A DNA stretch of 58,031 bases, the filler included, from Jimgerdemannia flammicorona (lineage: Eukaryota), in assembly GCA_003990765.1 (NCBI GenBank). It is 2 parts of 2 records of this genome, joined end to end, with 100 filler letters (N's around TTAATTAATTAA, not from the genome) between each part and the next. Parts side by side here need not be neighbours in the genome. Positions count along the whole stretch, not along the records: positions 1 to 28,974 come from RBNJ01000530.1; 1 more part is not named here. The stretch is one strand, 5' to 3'. The notes under the pieces were generated by a model, which was not told the origin of the DNA, made no database searches, and was given only the letters and a program-made list of their open reading frames with translations. This document shows positions 3,636-43,029 of the stretch, piece after piece. Position 1 is the first letter of the stretch, and the number at the start of each line of letters is the position of its first letter. The position numbers and the translations under genes were made by a program.

Positions 3636-3644
3636 AAGAAATAA

Positions 3645-5698: not shown

Positions 5699-6974
5699 CA
5701 CCTTAATATCTTTCTCTAATAAATAATTTGAAAGTGTGTTATAAAAGTATATATAATGTGAATTATAGCAAAGAAAGATGTATATAGAGCTTATTCTCAT
5801 GGAGGATCTTGAGACTTGTTCAATATGCTTGAGGTGTTCTTCTTCAGTACTACTGAAGATCAGGATATCATCAATGTATACAAGTACAAAGATATAGAGC
5901 TGATCCTTGAAGACAGTTTGCATGAGATCTTGAAAGGTTGCTGGTGTATTAGTGAGACCAAAGGCCATGACTAGGAATTTGTAGAGTCTGAAGAGTATTA
6001 TAAAGGCAGTCTTGGGTATGTCTTCTGGCTTGATTTGAATTTGGTGATACCCAGAGGTGAGATCAATCTTGGTGAAGTACTTTGCATTTTTGAGAGCATC
6101 AAAGATTTGATCTATGAGTAGTAGTGGATAATGGTTCTTGACTGTGATCTTGTTGAGTGCTCAGTAGTCGATGTATATTTGTAAAGTATTATTCTTTTTC
6201 TTGACAAATAGGACTAGGGAGCCAAAGGGTGACTTTCTTGGCTGAATGGCTCCTCACTCAATGAGTTCATTAAGTTCCTTCTTAACTGCTTCAATTTCAA
6301 GTGAAAACATGTGGTATATTTTCTTCTTAGGTATAGTTGCATTAGATACCAACTTGATTTCATAGTCATGGTCTCTTGAAGGTGGTAGACCAGGTAGTTT
6401 GTCTAGGAAGACATCCTTATATTTGTTTAGTAGTAATTTGATGCTTTCACTAATTCATAGCTTCTTGTCTTCTTTCTTTGGTTGGATCAGTACCACAAAG
6501 GCATAGGTAGCTTTCTTGAGGGCCTTCTTGAACTGAATTGCTGAAAGGGTAGCAATTGGGGTTCTTGTCTGAGTCTTATCTGACTTGATGGTAATGTTGG
6601 CTCCATCCTGGATCAAGGTGACTTCATTTTTGGTCCAATAAATCTGAGGGTTATGTTGTATAAGCCAGGGTTTGCCTAGGATCAGGTCATGGTCTTCTAG
6701 AGATGCTACCTCGAAATCTAAACATTCCCAGTACTTCTGGATCTTGAGAGGGAGTTTAGCAGCAATTGAGTTGATTGGTAAGATGGTGCCATCTGTAGTG
6801 ACAACTCCATCATTCTTGCCAGCTGGTTTGGTGAGAATCTTGAGCTTGTCAATGAGGTTCTTATTGATGAAGTTTCCAATAGCTCCACTATCTATGAGAA
6901 CATCTAGCTCTTGTACCTTGACTAGACCTTTGAAAATGAGCATTGAATTGGCTCAGTTCTCAGCTATACTTGTA

Positions 6975-10030: not shown

Positions 10031-10480
10031 TATGATGGTCAATCTGAATTAGTAACATAAATCAGAGAAATTAGATATTTGATCACAGTACCTGAATTCA
10101 ATTCCCAAATATAGCTTAGCCTTAAAAGATAGCAGTCATATTTCACTATTGGCAAAAACTTTACTATTGGTAAAATTTTAGAAGATGGCAAAATCTTTAC
10201 AAATGGTAAAAGATTCAATACTGGTAGAAAATGACTTATTACTTAGCTACCTTATAGCTAACAAACTTGTATAAATAACTCAGTATCTTAGAGTGAATAA
10301 AACTCAGATTGAAATAGTTCAAAGCAAAGAGAAAGCAAAGAAACTAGTAAGCCTGCAGACAGATATACTTTGAACTCACCCACCCCTGCATCCCAAGAAC
10401 TCTGCAGAGTCAAAGAAGATTAAGTTTTTAAGATACAGAAATCTGACATACTTCTAAGGTTAAGCATCTGCTATATTACA
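10031..10480 (+). repeat. 5' LTR of element B
   Basis: TATGATGG...TATTACA, colinear with 16246-16694; TATAAAT at 10270 and AATAAA at 10296. Confidence 0.95.
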
Positions 10481-10595
10481 ACTTGGTGCCTATTGACTGA
10501 TGATTCAAGATAAATTCCTTACTTTCAAACTAAATAATGAATAACTACTACTACTTGAACTACCACATAAACTGAGCCAAAATACTCAGACAAAA

Positions 10596-13500
10596 TGGAT
10601 ATAAGACCACTGATATTCTATAGATATACTTCAGATGAATCAATCATCACTTTCATTGATGACTTTGAGTAGTATACCACTATAAGAACCCTGACAGCAG
10701 TATAGCAAGTAGTCCTCATACCCTTCAGCCTATGAGGTCCTGCCAGAGCAGCATTCATAGCTGCAATCCATATAGGAAATAATGCTGATGCTATACTGAC
10801 AGTACAAAAGACCTGGCTCCAAAACACCTATTATATAGATGAGATCAAGCAAGCCCTAAAGGATCAGCTTAACACAACATACCATGAGATAAGTGAGGAT
10901 CCAAACACATTCTACACCAGAATTCAATATCAGATAATCCTTGCAGACTATGCTAATGCTATTCAAGATCAAGTAGCTGAAGCAACCTTCATAAAAGAAG
11001 TCCACCCAGATAGCTATGGCCATTTGCTCATTACTAGTAGTTCTGGATCTGCTGCAAAAGGTCACCTATGCTCAGCAATATTGGATAGCCAGACACCCAC
11101 AAGATCACACAATGGAAAAAGTCACTAGAGTTAGAATTGAAGTACCAAAGGCAACTAGTGTAATCTCTATCATAATGATCAATTAAAACACACCTCAGCC
11201 AAGAGCTACAGAGCTGTAGAGAAACAGTGACCCTATGGAGGAGCTTGCCAAACAGTTCACTGAAATGACTGCCCACCTAGAAGATGTAGTAAAGGAAATC
11301 AGAGAGAGAGACTGCTGCCCAGTTCAGAAGTTTATCACTACCACAGACAAGAAAAAAGGTACCTGCTACAGCTGTGGAGAGGAAGGCCACTACTCTTATA
11401 AATATAGAGTAAAACCAAGCATAAGACCCAGCCAAGCAATACTACTAAAAACAAGAAACAGGCTAACATTATTATATTTGAGGAAATTGGAGAATCAGAT
11501 GAAGAATAGTAGGCCTATTCTACATAGACTACCAAAAAAGATATTCATAAAGAACCTTACAAGAGGCCACCAGGAAGACCTAAGAAGAACTCAGTAGAAA
11601 AACAAATAGAGATAGCCACAGAAAGCCAAGCTGAAGAAATAGATCAAGATATGGAGCTAGAGCAGATAGTTCAGGATATCATCTGAGGAACCACTCCAGC
11701 CAGTAAAGGAGAAAAGAAGAAGAAGCTCTGCAAGACCAAAACTTTCAAGTATGATATCTTTAAAGACCTCAGCCAACAAAAGGTCAATGCAACCTTTGGT
11801 CAGCTTACAGAAATTCCCACCTTCAGATAGTAAATGAGATTTGGACTGGCAGAAATAATCAAGAAGCAAGGTTGGAAAATAATCAAGGCCAACAACATTC
11901 AAGAAGACTCTGGAGAAGAAAGTAAAGACAACTGCAAGACTTCTGCCTATGCAACTTGCCAAATTAAAGACAGAATCTTTGAGGCCATCATTGATACTAG
12001 AGCAGGAGGATATCTTCTCAGCAAAAAGCAGCAGACTGCCTAGGTTGGGAAGTTGAAGAAGCAACCAAGTTGATATTCATCACAGCAGATGGTATAAGAG
12101 CCACACCTCTGGGAAAAATTTGAGATGTTTCCATCAAGTTTGGAGGAGCAACCATCTCAGTAGATGTAATTGTAACCAATGCAACCAATTATGACATCCT
12201 CATTAGCAATCAATGACTTCACAAAGCCAGAGCAATAATCAACCTCAATGTACAGAAGATACAGATCATCTACTGAGGACAGAAAATATAAATTTCCATC
12301 AATATCAACAAAGAAGTACTTCCCAAAATGGAGAAACAAGAGAGTGAATAAGAGAAAGCCTATATAGTGACCACTCAGAAGAAGAAGAAGAAAGTTGGAT
12401 AAATGAGTAAAGAGAAATAGTATAAGAAGATTGCAGAAGGATATGCACTACAAGGAGTCTGCCCCTACAGGATCAAGATATACTATATGGAGTATATCAA
12501 TGATTGCTACCAGTATACTAGCAGAATCAGGAACATCTACTATGAAAGAAGACAGAAGGCTCTTAAGGAGCAGGCCAAAGAAGAAAAAGAGGAAGAAGAT
12601 GATAAACCACCAGCCCTCCTGGAGGACAGTGATGATGAAGAAGAAATCAAGGTCAAGATTTGAAAGATTCACTCTAATACAGTTCTACCAGAATATAAGT
12701 CAGAAAATGTAGCTAGAATGGACATCACTACTATAGAAGAAACTGTACTGGAACCCCAGATAACTACTTTGCTCACAACTGGTTTGGAAATGACTATACC
12801 AAAAGACTATGTTGGAATTCTCAAGACAAGAAGCAGCCTGGCTAAAAGTGAAATTACTATTGAAGGAGGAGTTATCGACTCAGACTATATTGGAGAAATC
12901 CTACTCATTGTCAGGAATCACAATTCTACAATCCCATTCCCAATCAAGAAGAAGGACTGATTGATACAGATGTTAATCTTTCCAGTTCTACAACCAAAGA
13001 TCATAGGAGTTAAGAAGCTAGAGAAAATAAGGAGAGGAAGGAAAGAAAAGAATCTACTGGAAGAAGAGTATTTGCTAGTACCAAGATTACTGAACTGGAC
13101 TACAAGAAAGAGGAAACTATAGATAAGCATAGCTATACCATCAGAAATAAGTTTTCACTCAAAAAGGAACTCAAGAAGATACTCTACAAATTTGAGGATG
13201 TTCTTGCCACAGACTTCAAGAATATCAAAGAAAAGACCCCACACCACTACCATAATGTAGACACAGGAGATGCAGAACCAATTTATCAGAAGGTAAGACC
13301 CATTCTGTCAGCCTACCATGAATGGCTTAGAGAAGAAATCAAGCAGATGGAAGAAACTGGTATCATCAAAGAAGTCAGTAGTTCTTGGACTTCACCAGTC
13401 ATACTAGCTCTGAAGAAAGAAAGCAAGCCAGGAGAATTTGCCCCAAGGCTCTGCACTGATTACAGGAAACTCAATCTGGTCACTAAGAAAGATCACCAAC

Positions 13501-15763
13501 TACTGCCCCTTATCAGTGATATCCTTGTAACTCTAGGAGATAAAGTACAGTATTACAGCACCTTAGACTTATACTCAGGATTCTATCAAATTAGTCTCAC
13601 AGAAGCAGCAAGTGAAAAATCAGCTTTCATCACCTCAGATGGAATCTATGTCTACTTATGAATACCATTTGAAATATACAATACACTAGTAAGCTTCTAG
13701 TGAATGATGAACAAAATCTTCTGCTATGATATGGGAAGATAGATGATGGTTTATATAGATAATATAATCATTTACAGCAGGACAGCTGAAGAACATCTGT
13801 GGTATATCCAGCAGATGATGGAAAAGTTAAGGAAGTATGGCCTTTACATTAAGCCTAAGAAATATAAGTTTGCAGAAATTGAGATCTCCTATCTTGGTCA
13901 TATCATCAATCAAGATAGAACACATTCAGACCCCCTCAATATACAAGCAGTAGCAGCATATCTAAGACCCACTATCATTACTAAAGCCCAAGCCTTCATG
14001 GAACTCACCTTCTACTACTGAAGATTTATTAAAAAATTCTTTAATATTGCAGGTCCAATCTATGAACTTAACAAGAAGGATACCAAGTTCCAATAGACTG
14101 GTAGGCAGCAATAAGTATTTGATGAGCTCAAGGTTAGACTGACCTAAGCACCCATCCTTAGAAGACCAGACTGGATCCAAGAATTCATCCTTTAGACAGA
14201 TGTAAATGCACAAGGACTAGGAGCAGTCCTAGCTCAGAAGAAAGACAAAGTAGAGTATGTTATTACATATCTCAGCCATAGAACCCAAGGAGCTGAAAAA
14301 GAATACAAATTGTATAAGTTGGAGTACCTTGCAGTCATCTGGGCTGTAGAAAAGTTCCACTACTATCTGACTGGAAGACACTTTACTATTTAAACTGACC
14401 ACTCAGCTCTCACCTAGCTACTGACCACTGGACAACCCAAGGGAATCTATGCCAGATGGATCATGAAGTTGCAAGCCTATGGTATGACTATTGTGTACTG
14501 CTCAGGAAGAACCAATACCAATATAGATGCTCTCTCACAGATACTCTGAAGGACTCTCAACCAACAAATCAATAATGAATAAAGAGCTCTCCTATAGAAT
14601 TATCACATATCTGGGACAGTAAAAGATGCCCCAACATTTGGAAGAATGGACCCAAATGATCATCAACAGAACATGGAAACAATTTGAAACTAATAGAGAA
14701 GTACTGAAGAAAGGAAAACTACTAGTAATACTAGAATGTAAAAAGGAGTAAGTAATGAAATCAGTATATGAACTCAGCCATCTAGATGGAATCAATACAT
14801 ATGATAAAATAAGAAGAACAATGTGGTGGCCAGGAATGGAGGAAGATATTAGACAATTTGTCAAGACCTGTGAAAAATACCAGAAACAAAAACAAGACTA
14901 ATGAAATCAGACTCCAGGATTAGCACATATAGAATCAGTGTCCTTTGCCTATATAGAAATAGATATAATTGGCCAACTACCTCTGATCCTGACTGGCAAC
15001 TGATATATCATTATCATTATAGACCTCTTCACAAAATAGATAGAGGCAGGACCCCTCAAAGAAGCCAATATACAGTCAATTGCTGATTTCTTCCACAAAG
15101 AAATCATCTACCAATTCAAGACTCCAATACAAGTGACCACTGATAGAGGAACAGAATTCATGAACTAGTTCTTTAAGGTTCTCTACAAAAAGTATAAGAT
15201 CTAGTATATTTGGACCACAGCATATTATTCCCAAGAAAATAGATAAGCAGAAAGGACCAACAAGATCCTCAAGAATGTTATTGCTAAGATCTGTGATAAC
15301 TACAAAAATTGGAATCACTATCTGCCAATAGCATTATTTGTTCTCTGGGATATTCGATCACAAAGTACCCATTTTACTCTCTAAGAAATGCTGTTCAGAG
15401 AAGAAAGTTCTCAAGGAACTCTATTAATTAATCAAGATGCTGTATGAAAGCATATAGATATAGAGATACAGAAACTATATCAAATCAGGAAGAAGGCCAA
15501 GGATTATATAAACAAGGTGCAGACACTATAGCAGAATAATGCAGAAAAGATTCACAAACCCCTGAAGATAATCAAGATAGAAGACAAAGTCCTAGTATAT
15601 CAGAATATGGTAGAAGCTTCATGGTCACAAAAACTGGAGCCTAAGTGGGAAGGATCTTATCTTATGCAAGATATAAAAAAAACCACCTTTTGGCTATGAA
15701 AATTCTCAGAAATAATCATTCTTACTACCATCTACCGAAACTGACTCAAGAGATACCATGAAT
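10596..15763 (+). pseudogene. gag-pol of element B
   Basis: CYSCGEEGH knuckle (~11365); AIIDTRAG protease (~11985); LCTDYRKLN, LDLYSGFYQI, YIDN in RT; RNase H TD...GLGAVLAQ; integrase IDIIGPLP, TDRGTEF and KWEGSY. Confidence 0.93.
12690..13075 (+). pseudogene. dUTPase domain of element B, between protease and RT
   Basis: TGLEMTIP, KTRSSL, GGVIDSDYIGEI, then a decayed motif IV/V. Confidence 0.88.
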
Positions 15764-16250
15764 AGTCAACAAAGTAATGTAGTTGCTCTCAGGATTACAA
15801 GTGCTGCCCAATGAGCCATAGAAAGATAGTGGTGTTCTACTGAGCCACCTACAATAGAGGAATCCTTTGACAGCATCCAGAGTATAGTCCAGACCCACTT
15901 ATCATTAATTTCATACTTCAAGGCCTACCAGAACCAAACTAAGCTTCAAGAATACTTCAGTACTAAATTCAAAGTCAGACATGGGAAAAGAAGACTAGAT
16001 CAAGTAATGTCAACTCTTCTACACTCAGATCACAATCACCAAGAGAGTGTATAAGTTATTCAAAGATGATGAGTCAGTCCTAGACTATTTTTGAGAAGTA
16101 GCCCCAACTGACTTTAGACATATCAAGAGATAATATTAGAAGAATGTTATGGTATAAATCCTACAATATAAGAAGATACAAATCATAGAAGTCTGGGAGT
16201 TTGAATAGAATACTTTAGAGATAAATCACTTATTTAGGAGGAAGTTGTGA
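15758..16250 (+). pseudogene. Accessory ORF downstream of integrase (unknown function)
   Basis: ATG overlaps the end of integrase. Reads MNSQQSNVVALR...FKAYQNQ...ITKRVYKLFKDDESVLDYF*EVAPTDFRHI with transition-type stops and one frameshift. Confidence 0.65.
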
Positions 16251-16694
16251 TGGTCAATCTGAATTAGTAACATGAATTAGAGAAATTAGACATTTGATTA
16301 TAATACCTAAATTGATTCCCAAATATAGCTTAGCCTTAAAAGATAGCAGTCATATTTCACTATTAGAGAAAACTTTACTATTGGCGAAATTTTAGGAGAT
16401 GGCAAAATCTTTGCAGATGGTAAAAGATTCAATACTAGCAGAAAATGATTCATTACTTAGCCACCTTATAGTTAGTAAACTTGTATAAATAACCCAGTAT
16501 CTTAGAGTAAATAAAACTCAGATCAAAATAGTTTAAAACAAAGAGAAAGCAAAGGAACTAGTAAGCCTGTGGGCAGATACACTTCAAACTTATCCATTCC
16601 TATATCCTAAGGACTCTGTAGAGTCAAAGAAGATCAAGTTTTCAAGATACAGAAATCTAACATACTTCCAAGGTTAAGCATCTGCTACATTATA
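16246..16694 (+). repeat. 3' LTR of element B
   Basis: TGTGATGG...CATTATA, immediately after the PPT. Confidence 0.95.
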
Positions 16695-17323
16695 CTGAAT
16701 ATATATAGATGAGATATTTAGCTTAGATCTACTCTATAAATCTTCAGAGCTAAGATCATCATCTTTATACTTATTATTATTATTAGATTCCTTACTGAGT
16801 ACTTGAGATATGTATTAATTATATATATATACTACTATATTAATAGTTTTGGCCTAATAAGAATATAATAATCTGATAACATTAATCATTATTTGAATTA
16901 TTGTAATGATTGTATAATTAAATTACTCAGCTATACTATTCTGTTGAGATATAAGGAGCTGTCATTTGATATTATATATTTCATTTTTTCAGAAATTGCT
17001 TAAATATATTATTGATATATTTATATCTATTATCTGATTATATAATACATACTCTATGTTTTGTCTCATTCTCAGTAATTACTTTGAATTCTTTGAATTT
17101 TTCTAAGACTTCACTCTTTGCTAATAAGAAATTATTTCTAGAGTATATATTTAGTAGTAATCTACTAATAGATTTACTCTTTATCATATATTAAAGACTT
17201 ATCTTACTGATATATCCTAAGCATTGATACTATATATTAGATATATCAGATATAGTTATTATATATATAGAGGCTTTTATACTATTTAGCATCTTATTGA
17301 TTATATAAATATTACTATTGTTA

Positions 17324-18844
17324 CATAGTAGTTGCTGAGTCCTTCAAATATACCAGATTCTCTTTAAGGTATATCTCTTAGACTAACTCAAGTTTATTAT
17401 AAGCAAGTTCTTATTGAAGTGCCTTCCCAAGGTCTTATAGTCCTCAAACTTCTTATCTTTAACTATCTTGTTATATCTTAGATTGCTTGCAAGAAAGTAT
17501 ATATAAGTGAACCAGAACTGACTTTATTTCAGAGAAAATAAGAGGAGTATTTATACAAAATATAATTCAATGATTGCTAAGATATAAAGCTAAATATAAA
17601 TTCCAATAACTAAAATAAAATGCCAGAACAGGAAAAACTACTAAGTTCCAGAGTCAGCACTGATGGTTGTACAGGTTCAGGATGCTGATATAATTCAGTG
17701 TTACATCAGAATACTGGTACTGGTATTATTCAGTATTATATCAGAATGCCAGTGCTGGCATTATTCAGTATAACCAAGGGACTTAGAGCAGAATGTTCAG
17801 GACTATGGGGGCTTCATCATCAGAGGTCAGGATGTCTTCAAAGGAGATGAGGTCTGCAAATTCAACATTATCGCATAGGTTATTTTCATGTATGTCATAT
17901 ATTTCACATATATTGTATGAGATGACGTCATCACTGATGATATCATTATATTTAGCAGTAGGAAGGAGGTCTAGAGCTCTCCAGTCTATGAGGTTCTCTT
18001 CCACAAAATAGAGAACAAATGTGGGGTCTTGGGGAGGTCTAACCTAGATGCTTGAGTCTTGGAATATTGAGATCAATTCTTACAGGAATTGGTCTGGGTT
18101 GTTCTAGAGGATAGGATGCCAGAAGTCTTCTACTTCATCACTATTGAGGGTGATAGTGGACTGGGCTTCTGTAGCCACTCTGACTTCTAGTACATTGATA
18201 CAGTGGAATTACAGATCTCTGAAATCTGAGACTCTAACATACTCCAAGTTGGGGATCAACCATGGTGCATACCTGAAGATCTGATGGATCTTTTTAGCTA
18301 TTTTTGCCTCATATATATCTATGGGAGTAGCATCTTGTAGCTCTTGAGGGCTGGCCTGTGGGAACTTCTGGTAGAGGAGGTTTCCTATTTCATACTTCTG
18401 CTATATTTAGAGGTATTCAGTAGTAATGGTAATCCTTGTTTCCATTTCACATATAATGATAAGAGTCACTGGTACTCAGGTTGATACTGGGAGTCCTTCT
18501 TGAGCAGGTCCTCATGGCTATTCTGATGTCTTGGAATATCCTCTCTTCAACTGAGATATCTTGATGGTTTCTTAATTTTGAGGTTTGGTAAACAGCAGGC
18601 ATTTTATTTGTAGTAAGTCTTTGAGCTATTTTGAGATTGGTGGGTCTTGTTGGTTGCTGCTACTGCAGTTCCTTGATCCTTTTTTTATATTCCTCAGGAT
18701 GCTTATACTGTGGTCAAAATGACTCATAGTTGGTCATCATTGCTCATCTTATATACTGTATAATCTTCTTGTGCTCTGATCTAGTGACTTGTAAGAAAAG
18801 ACTATCTTCTATGCTGATGTCATCATTCTGGGGTCACTATTACA
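17324..18844 (-). repeat. 3' LTR of element C (~1520 bp)
   Basis: Minus strand starts TGTAATAGTG right after the PPT; colinear with 24541-26104. Confidence 0.93.
17783..18602 (-). pseudogene. LTR-embedded ORF (~276 aa consensus), 3' LTR copy
   Basis: MPAVYQTSKLRNHQ...YEIGNLL...AKKIHQIFRYAPWLIPNLEYVRVSDFRDL...EENLIDWRA. Lesions are mostly complemented by the other LTR copy. Confidence 0.7.
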
Positions 18845-19214
18845 TCTTCCTCCTGAATAAAGATCTTCTCAAGCATCCTTATTCATTGGTCCAGTCCTGA
18901 AAAATTTTCTGATCCCATAACCTCTGGCAAGGGGTCAAAAAGTGGTATTTATGGGCTGATATCTTCCTTTTGTATTTTGGTGTGATGGTGAAGGGTCACT
19001 CCCTTCATATAGAGCAAGGGCCTGATTCTGATCTTGACCAATCAGTTGATGGTTCAAACTCCTCTAACTCTGAAAGTCTCACAAATGAGTAGTTGCTAAT
19101 ACCATATCCCTTAGAGAATAGTCCAGACAGATAGCCTGCTGGTCACAGTACATGCTGTTATGATTTGTAGACTAGAACCTTATGGGTAGTTATCATGTTT
19201 TGCTTCTCTTATAT

Positions 19215-22200
19215 AGGTTCATGATACTTCTTGAGTCTGTTCCTATATACTGTGGTAGGCAGTATAGTCTCTGAGATTTTTCTAAGCCAGAAGATAGTTC
19301 CCTTGATATCTTGCATATAGAAGGGTCCTTTTCATTTGGGCTCCAGTTTTCATGACCATGAGGCTTCTACCATATTTTGATACAGTAGAATCTTTTCTCT
19401 GATTTGGATGGGTTCTAGAGTCTTATAATTCTTTTCTGCATTCTTCCTTATCAGTACTTGTGACTTGATGATGTAATCTTCAGCCTTCTTCCTGATTTGG
19501 TATAGTCTTCTGATTTCTGCATCAACCTATCTCCAAGTTAGGTCTAGATTTATGGCTGAGGTTCCATCAGAATCTTCTTCTCTGAAGAGCAGTTCTCTTG
19601 GGGTAAAGTATGTACTCTGTGACTGTATGTCTCATAGGACAGAGAGGCAGTTGGGAGATAATTATCCCAACTCTCATATGTCTCTGAGATCTTTGCCAGA
19701 ATATTCTTGAGAGTCTTGTTGGTTCTCTCTGTTTGTCCATTTTCTTGAGGGTGGTATACAGTAGTCTTGATGTACTGGATCTTATATTTCTGATACATTA
19801 TCTTATAGAATCCATTGACAAATTCTGTGCTGTGGTCTGTTGTGATTTGCTTTGGTATCTTATAGTGGCAGATGATTTCTCAGTACAGAAAGTCAGCTAT
19901 AGAGAGGGTATTGGCTTCTTGTAATGCTCCTGCCTCTATCCATTTGGTGAAGAGGTCTATAATAACTATAATATAGCAGTTTCCTGATAATATTACTGGT
20001 AGTGGCCCAATGATATTCATTATGATGTGGTGGAAGGATATAGGCTCAATTCTTGATGATCTAGATGTCTGGTCTTACTGATCTTGTTTCTGTTTTTAGC
20101 ACTTATCACACTCTTTGACAAATCGGCACAGGTCTTCTTCCATCTTGAACCACCACATAGTTCTTTTTGCCTTATCATATGTGTTGATTCCTCCTAAGTA
20201 TTCTTGCTCATGTACTTCCTTCATTACTTGATACTTCTTGTGTTTAGGTATTACTAGCTTTCCTCCTTTTCTGAGTATAGTGTTGTCTAGTTCAAACTAT
20301 TTCCAATTCCAGTTGATGATAGTGATTGTCTAGGGTTTGAGGTGGTTGAACATCTTCTGCTGCCTAAGATAGCTGATTAATCCATAGTATAGCTCCTTAT
20401 TCATGTTGAATAGTCTTGATGGGGATGTTTCAGGGTATCCTTGAGAGTACATCAGCATTGGTGTTAGTTCTTCCTGAGTGGTGCTTGACGGTACAGTTAT
20501 ACTCTTACAGCCTGTAGATCCATCTGATATATATTCCTTTGGGGTTCAGAGTGTGGAATAGCCAGGCAAGAGCAGAATGGTCTGTTTGAATAGTGAAGTA
20601 TTTTCTGGCTAGGTAGTAGTAGAACTTGTCTACTGTCCAAACTACTGCTAAGCATTCAAGCTTACATGACTTGTAGTTCTGTTCTGCTCTGTAGGTATCT
20701 CAGCTTGCATAGGAAATGACATATTCATGTCCATCTTTCTTCTGAGCTAGGACTGCTCCAAGTCCTATAATACTTATATCTGTCTGCAGGATAAATTCTA
20801 GGTTCCAATCTGGTATTCTGAGGATAGGTGCTTGGGTCAGCCTATTCTTAAGTTCATTGAAGGTTTCTTGGTGTTCCTTGGTCCATTTGAATTTGGTCTC
20901 CTTCTTCAGTAGCTCATAGATAGGTACTACAATGTTAGAGTATCTTTTGATGAACCTTCTGTAGTAGCTGGCCAGTCCAAGGAAGGCATGGACTTCTGTG
21001 GTTGTTCTGGGTCTCGAGTAAGCTGCAACAGCCTCAATCTTCATGAGATCTGTGTGGATTTCAGTCTGGTTGATGAGGTGTCCTAGGTAGGTGATTTCCT
21101 GAGCTACAAACTTGCATTTCTTGGGCTTGATGTAAAGGCCATGCTCCTTGAGCTTCTTGAGGGCTAGCTATATGATTGACATATTCCTATATAGTGTTGC
21201 TAAAGATGATCACATCATCAATATAGACAAAGAGCCATTTTCCAATCTCATTGCTGAAGACTCTGTTAATCATTCACTGAAAACTTACTGGGGCATTGCA
21301 CATTCCAAATGACATTTGCAGGTAGATATAGATGGTATCAGGTATAATGAAGGCTGATTTCTCACTGGCATCTTGAGTGAGACCAATCTGATGGAAGCCT
21401 GAGAACAGATCCAAGGTAGTGTAGTATTTGGCTTTACTTCTAAGAGTGGTAAGAATTTCTTGAATGTTTGGCAAGAGCTGCCTATCCTTCTTGGTGATGG
21501 CATTGAGCTTCCTGTAGTCAATGTAGAGTCTTAGTGCAAACTCTTCAGGCTTGCTTCCTTTCTTTGGGGTAAGGACAATGAGTGAGACCCAGGGGCTGAT
21601 AGCTTGTTTGATGATTCTGACTTCTTCCATTTCCTTGAGTTCTGCTTGCAGCCATTCTCTGTAGGCAGGTGGTATGGGTCTAGATTTCTGGTAGATAGGC
21701 TTAGTATTATCAGTATCAACTTCATGATAGTACTTGGGTTTTTGGTTGTAAATATTCCTGAAGTCTATAGCAAGTACTCTTTCATTCTGATGCAGGATCT
21801 TGAGAAGTTATTCTTTCAGGGGAAAGTTTTCTCCAATAGTGTATGTGTGTTTGTTCTGGTCCTTGTCTTTCTTGTGCTCAAGTTCAGTAATCTTGGTGGT
21901 AGCATAGGCTCCTCTTCCAGTAGATCCAAAGTCTTGTTCTCCTCTCTTGGTCTTGATGAGTTCAATGGCTTCTATGATCTTAGGCTTCTTGATTTCATGG
22001 ATCAGCATCTGGTCAATCCTGTCATGCTTCTTGACTTTGAATGGAGTGGTGGAGTTGTGATTCCTGACTATAAGGAAGATCTCACCAGTGTAATTAGAGT
22101 CAATTACTCCTCCTTTAACTGAGATTTCACTTTTGGCCAGACTGCTCCTGGTCTTGATAATTCTGGTATAGTTTTCTAGCAGCTTGACTCCAATTCCAGT

Positions 22201-24420
22201 ACCAAGTAGGGTGGTGGTCTGTGGTTTAAGGGTAGCATCTTGAATGCTGGCAAGGTCTATTTCAATGGCTCCTTCAGTCTTGTATTCTGGAATCTTGGCT
22301 TTGGGGGTGAAACTTCTTAACCTTGAGGGTGATATCTGATTCTTATTCCTCCTCATTATTACTGTCAGCCTGAAGCTCTGGGGGCTGATCATCTTCTTTG
22401 GCTTTCCTTTTTGCTTTGACAGCTTCTTGCTCATGTTTCTGTTGATAGATTTTCCTGACTTCACTAATACAAGACCAGCAGTCATTCAGGTGTTCAGAGC
22501 TGTACATCCTAGTACTATGGGGGCATCTTCCTTGAGGGGTATAGCCATCAATGATCTTGTTGTACTACTGCTCATCTGTGAGCTTAGGTGTCTTGTTCTT
22601 GTTCTTACTCACCAAATACATGAAGACCTCTATGTCCTCTTCATCTCCTTCCTCCATGTCTGGTAGAACTCCTTTATGGACATTGATAGAAACTTGTACC
22701 TTTCTTCCTCCATAGTTGATCTGTATCTTCTGGGCATTGAGATCAATGATGGCCTTGGTCTTGTGAAGCCATTAGTTGCCAATGAGGATGTCATAGTTAG
22801 TAGTGCTTATAACAATCACATCTACTGGGATGGTAGCTCCTCCTATCTTGATGGGGACTTCTCAGATTTTACTAAGGGGGGTAGCTCATATATTATCTGC
22901 TGTGACATAGACCATCTTGGTAGACTCTTCAATGTCTCAACCTAGGCAGTTAATTGCCTTCTTACTCATGAGGCATTCTCCAGCACTGGTATCAATGATA
23001 GCATCAAAGATATAGTCTTCAATCTGATATGAGGTATAGGCTGATGTCCTATGCTGGTCTTTGAATTCTTCACCTGAGTTTTCAGATTCTTCCTGTACAT
23101 TGTGAGCTTCTACAATCTTGTACTTTTGATTCTTGATAGTAGTTATAAGTCCTACTCTCAACAGTTGTCTGAAGGCAGGAACTTCAGCTAGTTGTCCAAA
23201 AGTAGCATTGACCTTCTGTTTCTTGAGATTCTTATAGATATCATACTGGTGGATCTTGGTCTTGTACAGCTTCTGTTCCTTCTTGCTCTCACTTTCTCCT
23301 AAAACTAGAGTAGTGCCTTCAATAATTTGGCAGACAGCTTCATCTAACTCCATGTCTTGATCAATCTCCTCAGGTTGGGTCTTGCTTTGAATAGTGACAG
23401 CTGGGGTCTTCTTTGGTCTTCCAACTGGCTTGCTGTTACTCTTCTTGTCATAGGGCTTGGACTGGGTTCTGGTACCTTCAGTAGCAGGGTAGAATTCAAG
23501 CTCCTCATAGTATTCTTCATCATCAGTGTCACCAATCTTCTCAATGACTACTGCATTAGTTTGTTCTCTGGTTCTGCTAGCATTTCTTGGTTGGGCTTTG
23601 CATCTTGTTTCAGTTATGCAATTCTTTGCATAGTGGCCTTCTTCTCCACATCTGAAGTATATGATATTGCATTCTTCTGTAGCAGCTGCAAATCTCTGCA
23701 CTGGTCTCCTATTGGCACTTTGGACTTCTCTAACAATATCACTAAGGTGTGCAGTCATCTCGGCAAACTGCTTAGTAAGTTCTTCCACTGGATCAGCTTT
23801 GACTGCCTTGAGAGTAGGTGGGGTTGGTTGTCTGTTTACAATTATGGCAGATATGATACTAGTTGGCATTGATGGCTCTATCTTGATGCCAGTTATTTTC
23901 TCTATTGAGTGTTTGGCAGGGTGTCTGGCAGTCCAATATCTCTGTGCAAAGATCACTTTCTGATCAAGGGTCAGTATAGCTGGGGTAGACTGGATTGCTA
24001 AGGCAATTTCAGAGTGAACTCCTTTGAGAAAGGTTGAAACTACTATTTGTTCCTTGAGGGCATCATTATAGCTAGCCAGGACAATCTGATAGCAGATTTA
24101 GGTATAAAATGAGTTGGGATCTTCACTAAGTCTCTGGCAGATAGTATTGAGTTGATCCTTGAGAGCTTGCTTGATCTCTTCAGTATAGTATGTTATTCTG
24201 AGGAAGGCCTTCATGTTGGCAAGTTTGGCTGCACCATTATCAGCAATAGTAGCTGTATTGAACTTAGCTCTGGCAGGTCCTCTGAGGCTGACTGGTAGAA
24301 GGGCCAATTATGCATCCACACCAAGAGCTCATATGGCAGCAAATTGTTCAAAGTCTTCAATAAAGGTCAGTATTGACTCTTCAGTAGTATATCTATAGAA
24401 TATAGAGAGATGCATTTCCA
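19215..24420 (-). pseudogene. gag-pol of element C
   Basis: YFRCGEEGHYAKNC knuckle; AIIDTSAG protease; IDYRKLN, LDLFSGFHQI, YIDD; FLGLASYYRRFI; LQTDISIIGLGAVL; YHPQENGQTER. Confidence 0.93.
21905..22310 (-). pseudogene. dUTPase domain of element C, between protease and RT
   Basis: AIEIDL, KTRSSL, GGVIDSNYTGEI, DRIDQML and RGEQDFGSTG, all within ORF 21808-22485. Confidence 0.92.
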
Positions 24421-24908
24421 TCTTATCTTGAATTCTTGCAGGAGTGACTCTTGTAGTCAGGGTAGTTGTTGTGGGATTGTTCGTTTTTCAGCTTAAAAGT
24501 AAGAGATTCATCTTGTATCACCAGCCAATGGGCACCAAGACATAGTGGTCGCTAAGTCCTTCAAATTCACCAGATTCTCTTCAAGGTATATCTCTTAGAC
24601 TAACTCAAGTTTGTATAAGCAAGTTCTTATTAGAGTGCCTTCCCAAAGTCTTATAGTCCTCAAACTTCTTATCTTTAACTGTCTTATTATCTCTTAGATT
24701 GCTTGCAAAGAAGTGTATATAAGTGAACCAGAACTGACTTTATTTTAGAGAAAATAAAAGGAGTATTTATACAAAATATAATTCAATGGTTGCTAAGATA
24801 TAAAGCTAAATATAAATTCCAATAACTAAAATAAAATGCCAGGACAGGAAAAACTGCTAAGTTCCAGGGTTAGCACTGATGGTTGTATAGGTTCAGGATG
24901 CTGGTATA

Positions 24909-25025
24909 ATTTAGTATCACATCAGAATACTGGTGCTGGCATTATTTAGTGTTACATCAGAATGCCAGTACTGGTATTATTCAGTATTATATCAGAATAC
25001 CAGTATTGGCATTATTCAGTGTAAC
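24909..25025. repeat. 35-bp tandem repeat with internal palindrome (3 units here; 2 units at ~17693-17773)
   Basis: Unit ATTCAGTGTTACATCAGAATGCCAGTRCTGGCATT; the consensus AATGCCAGTACTGGCATT is self-complementary. Confidence 0.85.
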
Positions 25026-25033
25026 TAAGGAAC

Positions 25034-25862
25034 TTAGAGCAGAATATTCAGGACCATGGGAGCTTTATCATCAGAGGTCAGGATGTCTTCAAAGGAGATG
25101 AGGTCTATGAATTCATTGTCATTACATAGGTCATTTTTATATATATTATGTATTTCATATATTATATGAGATGACGTCATTGCTGATGACATCATCACAT
25201 TCAGCAGTAGGAAGGAGGTCTGGAGCTCTTTAGTCTATGAGGTTCTCTTCTACAAAATAGAGAACAAATGTGGGATCTTGGAGAGATATAATCTGGATGC
25301 TTGGGCCTTGGAATACTGAGATCAATCCTTGTAGGAATTGGTCTGGATTGTCCTAGAGAATAGGATGCCAGAAGTCTTCTACTTCATCACTATTGAGGGT
25401 AATAGTAGACAGGGCTTCTATAGCCACCCTGACTTCTAGTGCATTGATATAGTAGGATGATAGGTCTCTGAAATCTGAGACTCTAACATACTCCAAGTTG
25501 GGGATCAACTATGGTGTATACCTGAAGACCTGATGGATCTTCTTAGCCATTCTTGTCTTACGTATATCTATAGAAGTGGCATCTTATAGCTCTTGAGGGC
25601 TGGTCTGTGAGAACTTCCAGCAGAGGAGGTTTCCTATTTCATACTCCTGCCATATTTGGAGGCATTTGGTAGTAATGGTGATCCTTGTTTCCATTTCATG
25701 GCAGTAGAGGATATAATGATAAGAGTCACCAGTACCTAGGTTGACACTAGGAGTCCTTCTTGAGTGGGTCCTCATGGCTCTTCTGATGTCTTAGAACATC
25801 CTCTCTTCAACTGAGATACCTTGTTGGTTTCTTAATCTTGAGGTTTGGCAAGCAGCAGGCAT
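25034..25862 (-). pseudogene. LTR-embedded ORF, 5' LTR copy
   Basis: Includes track ORF 25584-25775 (MRTHSRRTPSVNLG...YEIGNLL). Retains 11 nt deleted in the other copy and has a 2-nt deletion near the C-terminus. Confidence 0.7.
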
Positions 25863-27649
25863 TTTGTTTATAGTAAGTCTTTGAGCTATTTTGGGATTGA
25901 TGGGTCTTGTTGATTGCTGCTACTGTGGTTTCTTGATCTTTCTATTATATTTCTCAGGATGCTTATACTGTGGTCACAATAACTCACAGTTGGTCATCAT
26001 TACTCATCTTATATGCTATATAATCTTCTTGTGCTCTGATCTGATAGCTTGCAAGGAAAGACTGTCTTCTGTACTGATGTCATTATTCTGGAGTCACTAT
26101 TACACTATGTTTTGAGACTATTAATATCTTATTATTATACAAATCATATACTATTATACTCTTTGCATATATATATATCTCTTTATTACTATATAACATT
26201 ATCTTCTTTATTTAAAAGAGGTTTTTACTAATTTTTAAAGTATATAATATATCTAGGAAGATACTAGCAGATTCTATGATATTGCTTTAGAGATATATTC
26301 CAATATTTCTCTTTTCTAAAGCATAGATAATATTGTTATGTATCTCTTAGTTTGATAAGTATAGAGTACTTAAAAAACTCATATATAGATAACAATTCTC
26401 TATATAATATTATATATTATATAGCTCCTAAATCTATTAATCAGACATTACTATTATTAGCTATATTAATATATTTATTAGATATATAGTTAGGCATACT
26501 GATGTCATTGCTATTTTTATCAGATAAAAAGTATTTTAACTATAATTTATATATATTGTTTATGTGAAAAATATATTGTTTTTATCAGTTTTTATAGTAT
26601 TTATATTTCTTTGCTGACTTCTACTATTTCTATGATAGTTCTTTCCACTACTTCTATATTACTAATACTGGTTTCTATATTTACTTTTACTGCTCTTCTT
26701 ATTTATTTTCTCAGTAATAATAATAGTACTTTCTATATCTATACTTGCTATAGTATTTATAGTAATTATTATACTTGATTGATTAGAAGAACTGATTGTT
26801 ATGATATTAATTTTGGGTTTAGGTTCATTAGCCTTATTATTATCTATACTTTTGACCTTATTTGATACTATATCTGTAAGAACTATAGAAGACATTTTTA
26901 TTATCATTAGTGGTACTGTTTTCTTGATATATTTTCTCATTCATGAGACTCATTATTATATGGGTATACATAATTCATAAGCTTACTACTTTCTATATAG
27001 CTACTATTATGATATCATATACTTTAGAAAGATTTCTTATAAGAGCTAGAACTTTGTCTTCATTACTTATATACTATACTAACATACTTAAAAAATTCAT
27101 CTGATTTATCAGATCATCAATATTACTAACATATTTATGGATAGTTTCCTTGGACTTCATTTATAGATTAAATAGCTGAGATTTTAGTAAAATTGATTCA
27201 ATATAGATATTTGTATATAATGATTATATAGAGTCTCCTATATCTTATAAGCAGTCATTATATGTATTATGAGCTTTATTTGGGAATTTGACAATATAAA
27301 TACAATCTTATATAATACTTGGTAATTATTTATAGTATCATAATCTTGAATTTATCCTTATAGCTTTATACTCTACTAAGTCACATTTATAGTATATTTC
27401 AAAACTGAATCAATGTTTTATTAAATTTTATATTTTAATTATTTAAATAAAAATACTCAAAATAAATATATTTTATATTATAATACATTATTTATATTAC
27501 AGATATTTAAAAATATTAAATTTATTGTTTTTAAATTTTTATTTTATTTTTAAAAAAAAATCTAAAAAAAAAAATTTATTGGTTTAGTTTTGGAACCAAA
27601 TTATTTATAAATATTCTTTATTTAATAGATAGACAATAAATTGAGATAT

Positions 27650-28650
27650 TGTAATATAGTGGATGCAGAATTTAGTAAGTTGGATGAATTTTGGAATTGG
27701 ACTGGTTTGATCTGACTCGTTCTGACTGAGGTTTATTCGCTCTAAAATACTGAGTTATTTATACAGATTTGTGCGCTAATTCTGCTACTAAATATGTGGC
27801 TAAGTATTAAGTCTTTTCATGTGAAATTCTCAGGTAGAATCTCATGTGAAATCCTATCTGAAATTTGTGAAAGTAACAAGAGTTTCACTGATAATGTTTT
27901 AGATGCAGTGTCCGCAGTAAAAGACTATACTAAATCGGAAATTGGATTCAGGTACTATGATCAAATGTCTATTTCCTGTTTCTATTTCATACCATACGTC
28001 ACATCTTCCCCCTGAATAGATTATTTTTGACACAAAAATACCTATTCAAATTCTTACATTGCAATGTTTATATATTTGTTCCCCCTACATGGACATATTT
28101 ATAATATATCCAGGCAATTGTTAAAATGTTATTTGAGGTTCCAAAAGTCTTCAAATAATTAATTCGGGCAGTGGTTTCAGGTGACGGTTCGGGTGACGGG
28201 GTCTTCAAAAATCGGGTGGTGGCTCATCTTCAAATTCTCCAGGATGTCATAGGTGTTCGTATGTTGGGCAGCATTCTTCAAATAATTAACTCGAATGGTT
28301 CGTATATGACGTCTTCAGCTCTCCGTGGTGGTCCATTCGTATGTCGGGTGGTATTCTTCACTCGGGCGGTTTGTATACGATGTCTTCAATTCTGCGGTCA
28401 AAAGTAGGGCGGCATTCTTCAAATAATTAACTTGGGCAGCGGTGGCATTTGGCATGGTGGTTCGTTCAGCGTTTTTTGGCGATTAATTCTTGTAACATTG
28501 TCCCTTAAACTAAGGAGCGACCTGGCTATTAACTCAATGATGTGGTCCTTTGCAGAGCGTCTATTGTTCAATACCGATGACAGTTCACAGAAACGAGGCT
28601 GACAACCAGAACAACCAATTAACAGCAGATAGCGCAGACAAACAATGTCT
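27650..28650 (-). mobile_element. 3' end of a B-related Gypsy element (F): 354-bp LTR 27650-28003, PPT and 3' internal region; CpG-intact
   Basis: TGTAATATAG...CGTCACA followed by the rc of PPT TTCAGGGGGAAGA; LTR blocks match rc of B's LTR (gacatttgatcatagtacctgaat; gcatc...ctatattaca). Assigning 28020-28650 to F is inferred from position. Confidence 0.75.
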
Positions 28651-28654
28651 TCAA

Positions 28655-28974
28655 CGCGCTCTCTCCACTACAATTCACGTTACACACACTTTTCAACACA
28701 CTTTTGAAGCTTTTATTGGAGAAAGATACTAAGGCAATGTCAACCAGCAAGCAAGCCGACACGCGTACTAGGTCGGGTGGACCTGGGGCCTTCGACTGGC
28801 AGACTGTCGGGAGAGGGTATGGATTGGGGATGGGGTCCTTCGGTGGTTCGAGTGGACAGGGTGGCTCCGGCAGTGGAAGTGGCACTGGAGGGGGGGCTGG
28901 GGAGAAGCAGGGGAGGAGCTTTGCGGACACGCTGAGGGGTGGGGGCTGGCCGTTGGGCACTCGTGGTGGACCGG
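28655..28974 (+). mobile_element. 5' end of a young, unmutated copy of the LINE family, cut by the gap
   Basis: Aligns to rc of ~5470-5783 but retains its CpGs. Confidence 0.88.
28737..28974 (+). CDS. LINE ORF1 N-terminus (open until the gap)
   Basis: MSTSKQADTRTRSGGPGAFDWQTVGRGYGLGMGSFGGSSGQ...RSFADTLRGGGWP vs decayed MSISKQANMYTRLGGPGAFD*...RSFADMLRTGGWP. Confidence 0.8.
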
Positions 28975-29074
28975 NNNNNNNNNNNNNNNNNNNNNNNNNN
29001 NNNNNNNNNNNNNNNNNNTTAATTAATTAANNNNNNNNNNNNNNNNNNNNNNNNNNNNNNNNNNNNNNNNNNNN
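28975..29074. other. Artificial contig linker: 44 N + TTAATTAATTAA + 44 N
   Basis: Exactly 100 nt and symmetric; the central 12-mer gives stop codons in all six frames. Confidence 0.97.
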
Positions 29075-30749
29075 AAAAAAAAAAAAAAAAGATATATCTA
29101 TATATATTTATACTATTTTGAGTAACTATAACTGCTATATAGGAATTTTCATAGAAATTTCTAATAGAATTTCTATCAGAATTTTCAGTAGCTTAGAGAT
29201 ATATAATAATTCATTATAGTAACAAGCAAATAATATAGTTTAGCCAGATAATATAAATACTCAGTATAGTATAGTTATCTATATCTATTTACTCATATAT
29301 ACTACTACTTATAATTAGTCAAAGATATAAATCAGATTTGTTAATCTATATCCTAAGGATATATCTATACTTACTAGATACATATATCTATTGTAATATG
29401 CTGGCTCAATGGAGGCAAATTACAAGGTTGGGGATTGATATAGTTTGGCTTGAGCCCCCAGTTACTTTGTCAAAAAGCAACAAAATGTTCTAAGATTCCT
29501 GAGGTCCTTGGTGTTTAGTGGTATAATAGTTAAAGCTGGATATCTGCGAGTGATTTGTGTATTGATTTCCTAATTGGGATGATTCTTCTGGGTATAGTGG
29601 CGATTTGAGAATGGGTTTCCTTCTTGAGTAGCAGTTGATTTCTTTGTATAGCATAATGATCTCCTTGTGTATAACAGTCTGGTAATTTAGTAGTTCTCCT
29701 TATGCAATTTCTGCATGATGATCTTGTATAGCATGAGTGGTTTCCTTATTTGAGTCAACTGGGAATGGTAGGATTTGTGTATAGCATGAGCAGTTTCCTT
29801 CTTGGATGGCAGGTGATCTTGGAAATAATACTGGCAGCAGATAACTTAACAACTCGGGCTCACTGGAAACAATGAAGAACTCAGATGTCACAGATTTGGC
29901 TTCAACTGGGAATACCACTTGGATGGTCTGGGTCTTCTGGGAATGTGAATAACTTGAAAATGGCAGATAACACAGATTCTCCTGAATTGGCAGACTTCTG
30001 GGAAATAACTTGGATGGTGCGGATTCTTTGGAATCAGCGGCTTCAACTGGAAAGGGTCTCTTGGCAAAGTTGCATCAAAGACTGGCTTTGTTTGCATGAA
30101 TGGGTCACTGCGAAGTTGTGTCAGAAACTGGCTCATGGCAAGAAAGGCAGGCTCTCTGGGAATGGAGCAAAGTTCTTCCTTGAACTTGGCAGAAAACTGG
30201 GATTCTTCAGACTTATCTGGCAAGCATACCAAAAACATAACAAACTCTTCTTTGTATCGGAAAGTGGACTGGAGTGGAAAAAAGGGGAACCAATGCTCAC
30301 AATCTCCTAGTAGTGACTTTAGAGCAGGCATTTCTTCTAAGTATTACAATCCTTCCTGGATCAAGTGGCTTTTGGCAGGTATATCCCTCAAAGTGTAATA
30401 GGCAGACTTGTATTTTGCTTTGAATTTGGACTTTTTGGACTGAGGTTTATTCACTCTTGTCTCTGGGGTAATTTATACAAGTTGGTTGCTATCTGGTTAC
30501 TATGTGGCTAACTATAGATCTGCTACTTATAGCAGGTGTACAGAGTCTGTACAGGTAAACAGACCCTTTCTGGTATATCTGGCTATTTATACAGTTTCAA
30601 CAGCAATAGTTGCTGATTACTATGCTGTGTGTTCATGTCATCTGGCTAATTGTTTATGTCATCTAGCTAAGGTATAATTTGGGTGATATGTCCTGGTTTG
30701 TCACATCAGCTCCCACTGAAGGATAGTCTGTCCCAGACTGTTCTTCAGT

Positions 30750-31255
30750 TATCATCTCAATAAGCATAGGCTACTTCTGCATCTATACCTGTTCTATCAT
30801 CTTTATTATCTGTACTAGGGTCACTCCATTCTATGGGCTCTTCTTCTTCTTCGGAGAATAGGATTTTGACAGAGTCGATGATGCTCAAATAGCTAATAGG
30901 GTTCATTTCTTGAATGTCATTCAGGGAGAATTGTGCCTATGTCAGGGCTGTGACATTTTGTTTATAAATGGTGTATAGTCTGTCTGTAGCAATAGTGTCT
31001 CTTCTGGTCAGACCTGTGGTATTCCTGATATAGGTCTGCTCTGGGGCTAGGAGGTTCTGCAATTGTTCACTGATTGCATAATAGGCCTGCAGTTGGTGGA
31101 CTTGTAGTAGGCATCTGGCCAGAGTGAGATTTTCTTGATGAGCTTGGATCCTCTAAAGGGGGCTTCCATTAGCTTGGCCAAATTGGGGTAGAGGGACTGG
31201 TATAGAAGGAGCTGAGGACCAATGTCTAGAGGTGCTGATCAATCCTTTGGCTCAT
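30750..31255 (-). pseudogene. Accessory ORF downstream of integrase in D (homologous remnant in E at ~53370-53900)
   Basis: MSQRIDQHL...HQENLTLARCLLQVHQLQAYYAISEQL...IATDRLYTIYKQN...SLNDIQEM in one frame, with transition-type stops. Confidence 0.7.
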
Positions 31256-43010: not shown

Positions 43011-43029
43011 TCCCCAGGACCCATTGCCT

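Follow-up and report, generated by a model that had tools for sequence, protein, structure and literature searches.

A probable accessory gene inside the long terminal repeats of a Gypsy retrotransposon of Jimgerdemannia flammicorona

The stretch of Jimgerdemannia flammicorona DNA analysed here (the window, 58,031 nucleotides (nt) from assembly GCA_003990765.1, filler included) is a nest of retroelements, within which comparison of the stretch with itself by blast reveals two related Gypsy elements, B and C. The internal parts of these elements are 66.2% identical across 5410 columns, while their long terminal repeats (LTRs) differ greatly in size. The LTRs of B are 446 nt long and 88.3% identical to each other, whereas those of C measure 1522 and 1565 nt, in agreement with the 450 bp and approximately 1.5 kb given in a preliminary description made from the sequence alone. 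Each of the long LTRs of C contains a sense-strand open reading frame (ORF), at exactly the coordinates that this description had given (Table 1), and its proposal of a protein gene present twice per element also holds: the gene is genuine and has about 271 codons. We consider it probable that this is a true accessory gene of a Gypsy element, situated wholly inside the LTR, in what would be its unique 3' (U3) region, and as a consequence of that position copied into both LTRs of each element at every transposition.

Element C is a Ty3/Gypsy LTR retrotransposon both in the order of its domains and in its boundaries. On the minus strand, ORFs running from 24097 to 19209 encode gag with its CCHC motif, dUTPase, reverse transcriptase (RT), RNase H and integrase in that order, recognized by Pfam as zf-CCHC (E 0.0017, short of the curated cut-off), dUTPase (E 2.4e-23), RVT_1, RT_RNaseH_2 and rve. 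The extra dUTPase sits between gag and RT, and no protease domain was called in C by Pfam. The LTR pair shares 86.48% identity across 1568 columns and is bounded by TGTAATAG...GTAACA, of the TG...CA type. A polypurine tract (PPT) directly abuts the start of the 3' LTR, and the pattern AGGAGGRAGR-TGTRAT occurs once in the whole window and in 0 of 100 shuffles; the counterpart of this junction in B, from 16237 onwards, reads AGGAGGAAGT-TGTGATGG. At the other end of the internal region, TGGTGCCCATTGGCTGGTGA nearly matches TTGGTGCCTATTGACTGATGA, the sequence that follows the 5' LTR of B, and the two elements therefore share a primer-binding site (PBS). The final bases of the C 5' LTR ahead of the PBS are unlike those of the 3' LTR, probably because of a small deletion. 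Since ATAG flanks both ends of the element, C is taken to span positions 17319-26104. Among the findings that would undo its reading, the preliminary description had named repeats of 1.5 kb that were not true LTRs. The PPT, the PBS, the 4-bp target duplication, the TG start and an identity of 86.5% establish that they are true LTRs. An origin of the repeats by segmental duplication or from nested elements is also at odds with the gag-to-integrase body that lies between them.

The anatomy of the 3' LTR places the gene well within it. The order is 242 nt of upstream sequence, the 820-nt gene, about 16 nt, an array of 35-nt tandem repeats, the TATA box TATAAATA, an AATAAA polyadenylation signal and about 200 nt to the end. 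As the ORF starts 242 nt inside the LTR (LTR start at 18844), it does not lie between pol and the PPT or 3' LTR. The gene stop is 227 nt upstream of the TATAAATA box, and B holds a TATA-AATAAA pair at the same relative place (TTGTATAAATAA and AAATAAAA). Judged by the TATA and AATAAA motifs, U3 would reach to about 17526 and so would hold the whole gene. The core of the 35-nt repeats is a palindrome of the type AATGCCAG-N2-CTGGCATT, one copy of which is perfect (17745-17762), and the remaining units can be read as differing from it by transitions. A 35-nt length difference between the two LTRs is seen in their alignment.

In element C itself the gene is now dead. The 3' copy consists of codons 1-49, an 11-nt deletion at about 18451 and then codons 56-271 in a single frame, and the 5' copy runs through codons 1-230 in a single frame until a 2-nt deletion at about 25158, after which the tail is in another frame. 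Five in-frame stops interrupt the 5' copy (codons starting at 25793, 25586, 25511, 25355 and 25232), equivalent to residues 24, 93, 118, 170 and 211 of P0002, an intact relative introduced below. Six interrupt the 3' copy (codons at 18409, 18403, 18211, 18106, 18082 and 18046, or P0002 residues 69, 71, 135, 170, 178 and 190). The sole stop common to both is the TAG at residue 170, and with the other nine stops unshared and different deletions in each copy, the lesions are largely complementary, as had been noticed from the outset. The observation as a whole goes far beyond chance.

The nature of the lesions points to how they arose. Ten of the 11 stops fall at glutamine (Q) or tryptophan (W) codons of P0002 and the remaining one at a serine codon, while the arginine codons of the gene have mostly turned into codons for cysteine, histidine or tyrosine in tblastn alignments. 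The LTRs mismatch at 163 aligned positions, comprising 153 transitions and 10 transversions, and 98 of the transitions are at CpA/TpG, a bias that we take to be the signature of fungal repeat-induced point mutation (RIP). The two copies decayed by such a RIP-like C>T/G>A process after insertion, independently of each other. Divergence between the LTRs is alike at 12% upstream of the ORF (29/242) and within it (100/820), so that the gene evolved neutrally after insertion. With 152 dinucleotides unaltered in both copies and 81 altered in one, the RIP-like hit rate comes to 0.21 per copy (about 21% of such sites). For the 22 glutamine and tryptophan codons of P0002 it predicts approximately 4.6 stops per copy, against 5 and 6 observed, and 0.97 stops shared through parallel hits, against 1 observed. 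The common TAG therefore does not show that the gene had died before insertion, and the stop counts agree with a gene that was still intact at that time.

Intact relatives of the gene are present in public protein collections. When about 5.8 billion proteins were searched by a word index, with the 5' copy as query and its stops read as X, 67 candidates were returned, six of them at E <= 0.01. P0002, a protein of 271 amino acids (aa), covers the whole length of the 5' copy at 72% identity and shares both its beginning (MPAA...) and its end (...LNFLL); in tblastn, 165/231 of its residues agree with the 5' copy (E 2e-106), and 145/223 plus 33/49 with the 3' copy (E 2e-86). By sequence P0002 and P0003 appear to be the closest intact relatives, within the sub-branch of C itself, and the C frame is 65-79% identical to intact relatives along its full length, with start and stop co-located. 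A family profile built on five intact relatives, searched against 1.84 billion representative proteins, had five hits at E <= 0.001, three of which are the diverged members P0008, P0009 (342 aa) and P0010. All five are unnamed or labelled 'hypothetical protein' and come from contigs of at most 4.8 kb. Intact members range from 247 to 342 aa, and pairwise identity over 10 aligned members extends from 23% to 98%, with about 23-50% between sub-branches. In a six-frame search of the window the same profile matched significantly only in the two LTRs of C, and B is without the gene.

DNA for the family was obtained from one further source, L001, a metagenome contig of 1535 nt, which is the single locus behind 46 matches in a metagenome pattern scan. 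Another metagenome scan (474 pattern matches) and a scan of viral contigs (210 pattern matches) contained nothing related to the LTR gene, and the gene was without a blastn match in the phage collection. The odd C-terminus of another family protein, P0007, was dropped as evidence of context: its last 14 residues correspond to the 3' end of the gene read in reverse complement (17776-17817, plus strand, E 9e-05), and the source contig is probably an inverted chimera.

The L001 frame is open for 291 codons, while the other two frames hold 13 and 20 stops. In a protein-guided and nearly gap-free alignment (E 2e-47), identity between L001 and the C copies at first, second and third codon positions is 0.53, 0.68 and 0.39 over 195 codons and 0.54, 0.67 and 0.40 over 194 codons. 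Identity that is highest at second positions and lowest at third positions indicates a protein under purifying selection, and the codon-position constraint that the preliminary description had proposed to look for is thus found against both copies. Within the family, a C-terminal [VIT]LN[FI][LT] motif is reached in frame by eight of 10 members across 31 distinct internal gap intervals. A DLIxF motif is likewise kept in eight of the 10 aligned members, although the length of the acidic tail varies in almost all, and a core of about 75 residues contains 48 invariant columns among seven sequences. At the level of the sequences compared, these patterns demonstrate that the family has evolved under protein-level constraint.

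These data leave almost no room for a chance frame in a non-coding U3. Such a frame would sit well with the lack of any Pfam match, with poor structure models and with the 11 stops and two frameshifts of the copies in the window, yet it would not produce tblastn matches of E 2e-106 and 2e-86 to intact proteins or the codon-position pattern. Together with the domain body and the PPT pattern, these results refute both the chance frame and the view of the repeats as something other than LTRs, and we regard either as extremely improbable.

Table 1. Coordinates of elements B and C, of the LTR gene and of associated motifs in the window
Feature	Position	Strand	Remarks
LTR gene, 3'-LTR copy	17783..18602	minus	ATG at 18602, TAA at 17785-17783
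LTR gene, 5'-LTR copy	25034..25862	minus	ATG at 25862, TAA at 25036-25034
Gypsy element C	17319..26104	minus	both LTRs present; from self-blast and Pfam, ends read directly
C 5' LTR	24540..26104	minus	1565 nt
C 3' LTR	17319..18844	minus	about 1525 nt; aligned part 17323-18844 (1522 nt)
Polypurine tract AGGAGGAAGA	18845..18854	minus	directly abuts 3' LTR start TGTAATAG
PBS-like TGGTGCCCATTGGCTGGTGA	24518..24537	minus	follows C 5' LTR; start reads TGGTGCCCATTGG
Target-site duplication ATAG, upstream side	26105..26108		read directly; equals 17315-17318
Target-site duplication ATAG, downstream side	17315..17318		follows LTR end ...CTATGTAACA
TATA-like box ATATAAAAAA	18681..18690	minus	3' LTR, 87 nt upstream of gene ATG; candidate promoter of the gene, inferred
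TATA-like box, 5' LTR copy	25941..25950	minus	mutated to ATATAATAGA
35-nt tandem repeats, 2.5 copies	17685..17771	minus	3' LTR, between gene stop and main TATA box
35-nt tandem repeats, 3.4 copies	24901..25020	minus	5' LTR, same repeats
Main LTR TATA box TATAAATA	17548..17555	minus	3' LTR; 5' LTR copy 24764-24771
AATAAA polyadenylation signal	17523..17528	minus	27 nt after TATA box; 5' LTR copy 24739-24744
Element B	10033-16692	plus	LTRs 10033-10478 and 16248-16692

The surroundings of the gene in L001 are of a different kind. Here the TAA stop codon directly abuts AAGGAGGGAGGA-T-TGTAATAAG, which by its likeness to the corresponding sequences of C (AGGAGGAAGA-TGTAATAG) and B (AGGAGGAAGT-TGTGATGG) can be read as the PPT and LTR start of another element, and a T-rich box stands ahead of the purine tract in all three. 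The L001 gene thus probably lies just upstream of a 3' LTR, in the position of env. Some of its upstream sequence is shared with C: TATAAAAG is found 80 nt before the ATG, compared with 87 nt for the TATA-like box of C, and the 21 nt preceding the ATG are conserved between the two (z 3.9; score reached in two of 300 shuffles). With the gene apparently upstream of the LTR in L001 and inside it in C, gene and LTR boundary have swapped places at least once. Two routes fit this exchange. The PPT and attachment site could have been duplicated or shifted upstream of the gene, with later loss of the old site, or a cassette of promoter plus ORF could have been inserted into U3 through template switching. 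The non-coding flanks are too diverged to tell a moved PPT from an inserted cassette, or to say which state is the older: beyond the PPT and LTR start, the 21 nt before the ATG and a 13-14-nt ACTGAATAAT box, no non-coding LTR homology was detected between C and B or between C and L001, and the sequence that follows the C gene stop, read directly, holds no relic PPT. The suggestion of the preliminary description that the gene entered the LTR by use of a more upstream PPT is consequently borne out in part, in that the L001 gene, at this one locus, does end at a PPT/LTR-start motif, while a move of the site and the insertion of a cassette are not separable.

An exchange of this type might have been an accident, in which an ORF in the env position was swallowed by a shift of the boundary and was already useless or unexpressed in the lineage of C. 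That the L001 gene ends at a PPT, that C is the sole DNA example with the gene inside the LTR and that one TAG is common to both copies would all agree with such an event. The numbers of stops, however, both per copy and shared, equal the expectation for an intact gene, and a frame that remains 65-79% identical to intact relatives, with the same start and stop, shows no drift before insertion; the nearest of those relatives, P0002 and P0003, belong to the sub-branch of C. We give this explanation little credence.

A passenger origin deserves the same scrutiny, since LTR elements are known to transduce genes, as a review describes (PMC7264820). On this explanation a fragment or retrocopy of a host gene was carried into the LTR, where it does nothing for the element, which would account for its absence from B, the closest relative of C in the window, as well as for a protein devoid of any retroelement domain. 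Against it, the profile search of 1.84 billion representatives produced five matches at E <= 0.001, none of host type, and no longer or fused form scored among 4482 candidates, although this last is weak evidence. Both DNA contexts adjoin a PPT/LTR-start motif, and the maintenance of frame and motifs at about 23-50% identity between sub-branches implies long persistence in retroelement lineages, whereas transduced genes occur in one or few copies (PMC7264820). A passenger is accordingly improbable, and the idea that the gene had been captured, in the sense of a host gene, is not supported: no host-gene relative, fused form or known domain was found, and two of two DNA contexts are retroelements. 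A genuine gene of the element remains the preferred explanation.

The encoded proteins are acidic overall, with isoelectric points of 4.5-4.9, but their charge is unevenly distributed. The first 45-60 residues form a basic, arginine-rich stretch (in the first 45 residues of P0002, 10 lysines and arginines vs two aspartates and glutamates), while the net charge of the tail is -15 to -22. Two motifs lie in this tail, DLIxF and ...VLNFLL, the second of the LxxLL type; P0009 has PPAY in addition. No membrane segment was found in the five members tested, whose top 19-residue Kyte-Doolittle means were 0.59-1.05. Pfam contains no family matching P0001 at E <= 10 and none matching P0002 or P0013 at E <= 0.01. 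ATG5_HBR, the sole Pfam family at E <= 1, appeared in two of 10 members with a best E of 0.088 and was rejected as noise. The family profile had 0 sequence matches in the PDB at E <= 10, and its neighbours in the ESM Atlas are unnamed clusters only, one of them from Mucoromycota (score 0.89). Like the RIP-like mutation pattern, this near cluster points to a fungal host.

Structure prediction adds a rough outline. AlphaFold2 with five sequences gave a mean predicted local distance difference test score (pLDDT) of 35.8, with the tail below 50, and with nine sequences and the N-terminal 220 residues only it gave a pLDDT of 53.9 and a predicted template modelling score (pTM) of 0.50. In either model helices predominate up to about residue 188, and the tail is without structure. 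Searches with such a poor model yielded a best Foldseek E of 0.96 and a best VIA-align Z of 4.4, so that neither method provided a fold match of use, and models of this quality do not allow a new fold to be claimed. The protein has a basic N-terminus, a middle part that is probably helical and an acidic tail, and in composition only, its negative charge and bulky hydrophobic motifs, this tail would resemble an acidic activation domain.

From this make-up the protein could be a soluble, probably nuclear regulator. Activators with an acidic domain show the same combination of arginines near the N-terminus, a helical body and bulky hydrophobic motifs within an acidic tail, and our best guess, at well below even odds, is an element-specific transcription or anti-silencing factor that acts on its own LTR. 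Such a factor might act on the 35-bp repeats beside the gene, whose palindromes, lying between gene and promoter, resemble binding sites for a dimer. Other roles may share the remainder, among them a helper in RNA export or packaging and an adaptor to host proteins through short motifs.

Expression of the gene can be pictured in a similar way. Genomic RNA would carry it at the 3' end only, as is the case for sag of mouse mammary tumour virus (MMTV). A promoter of its own is plausible, given the counterpart of the TATA-like box in L001 and the conservation of the 21 nt that precede the ATG; should this box, some 80-87 nt ahead of the start codon, act as one, each LTR would form a unit complete in itself, with promoter, ORF and LTR polyadenylation signal. 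The most complete version of this scheme, in which the TATA-like promoter, in the 5' part of U3, drives a family-specific nuclear factor whose acidic tail activates the main promoter or shields it from silencing through the 35-bp palindromic repeats, is a conjecture that we think unlikely to be right in full. If it were true, every solo LTR would still make the factor and could trans-activate sister copies, and the system would be a counterpart of foamy-virus Tas or of VANC, the anti-silencing proteins of plant VANDAL transposons.

Several points weigh against the interpretation developed here. The boundaries of U3 and R are known from the TATA and AATAAA motifs only, and the LTR start of L001 is assigned by likeness, on a contig that ends 270 nt later. 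The codon-position test uses a protein-guided alignment and one DNA relative. The database relatives are open by construction, as gene callers list open frames, and by themselves would be biased evidence; for this reason weight was put on the codon-position pattern and on the frame kept across insertions and deletions. With regard to function, the proposal draws on composition and on short motifs that are common in disordered acidic tails, the helical body is a weak statement given two poor models (pLDDT 35.8 and 53.9), and no fold or family backs any function of the protein.

Among known systems the closest parallel in position is MMTV sag, also called the LTR ORF, which is likewise a complete sense-strand ORF in U3, present in both LTRs and at the 3' end of genomic RNA. 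This analogy, already drawn in the preliminary description, holds for the C ORF, which is on the sense strand and inside U3 as bounded by its motifs. MMTV is a mammalian betaretrovirus and C is a Gypsy retrotransposon, however, and the likeness is one of position and not of homology. Sag is a type II membrane glycoprotein for which Pfam holds a model, whereas the C protein has neither a Pfam match nor a hydrophobic segment. The nef gene of human and simian immunodeficiency viruses and the bel2/bet and Tas genes of foamy viruses, the last with an internal promoter, are 3' accessory genes next to or over the border of PPT and U3. The layout of L001, with its stop abutting the PPT, is similar to these, but the gene of C lies within the LTR over its whole length, clear of that border. 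Nor is there a Pfam match to Nef or Bel/Tas, or a PDB sequence match at E <= 10, for the protein family of C. A promoter upstream of the gene and an acidic activator tail would be features in common with foamy-virus Tas, both of them candidate roles in C.

Retrotransposons offer further cases for comparison. A review (PMC7264820) describes additional ORFs (aORFs) of plant LTR retrotransposons that are conserved family-wide, have no assigned function and are without database matches; most lie between pol and the 3' LTR, and some encode nuclear proteins. L001 fits this class, while the gene of C, being inside the LTR, does not: that review places the aORFs in the internal region, and the phrases 'within', 'in' or 'inside the LTR' are absent from it. 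LTR retrotransposons of bdelloid rotifers carry captured ORFs besides gag and pol (PMC5408684), but these are animal elements, and a phrase search of that paper found no ORF inside an LTR. In the literature searched, which included PMC5408684, PMC7264820, PMC1560396 and PMC12037069, with subscription-only papers excepted, no case of an LTR retrotransposon whose LTR holds a gene was found, and the layout was met in retroviruses only, chiefly as MMTV sag. Element C thus appears to represent a sag-like placement of a gene in a Gypsy retrotransposon, with a new protein family.

LTRs are usually treated as non-coding control regions, and annotation pipelines seek no genes there. A conserved gene in U3 would be duplicated with each insertion, would outlive the body of the element as a solo LTR and could be expressed without gag-pol. 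It would also change gene counts for transposable elements, the way in which long LTRs are read, and views on how such elements regulate themselves or interfere with silencing by the host. L001 and element C provide two states from which to ask how a gene crosses an LTR boundary.

The remainder of the window contains other retroelements. Element D has an LTR pair at 29392-30111 and 38286-38951 that is 83% identical, and a dUTPase lies between gag/protease and RT in both C (21811-22485, minus strand) and D (33902-34651, minus strand, E 1e-23). A decayed frame rich in acidic residues, ...FSEEEEEPIEWSDPSTDNKDD..., occupies the env position of D, between its integrase and its 3' LTR (30721-31020, minus strand). 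Its comparison (30924-30721) with the LTR-gene block '...EENxIDWRAPD...' was not significant (independent E 2.9), and Pfam gave nothing; the frame could be a very distant relative in the env position or a product of chance. The LTR region of D at 29700-30400 holds four overlapping open frames of 124-151 codons on both strands, of which one on the minus strand crosses the LTR boundary. Further along, long open frames follow one another on the plus strand at 40071-43583, among them an RT (RVT_1, E 9.3e-06, short of the curated cut-off) and stretches rich in cysteine. With short direct repeats on either side (39795-40098 and 44272-44575, 93% identical), this is another retroelement, of a different type. 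A run of N at about 28970-29020, probably an assembly gap, yields X in translations of 28619-29030. The two ends of the window, 1-5700 and 56000-58031, are approximately 50% GC, with a very strong negative GC skew (-0.3 to -0.5) and long open frames on both strands, and an RT fragment is present at 1294-1683 on the minus strand (RVT_1, E 3.5e-08).

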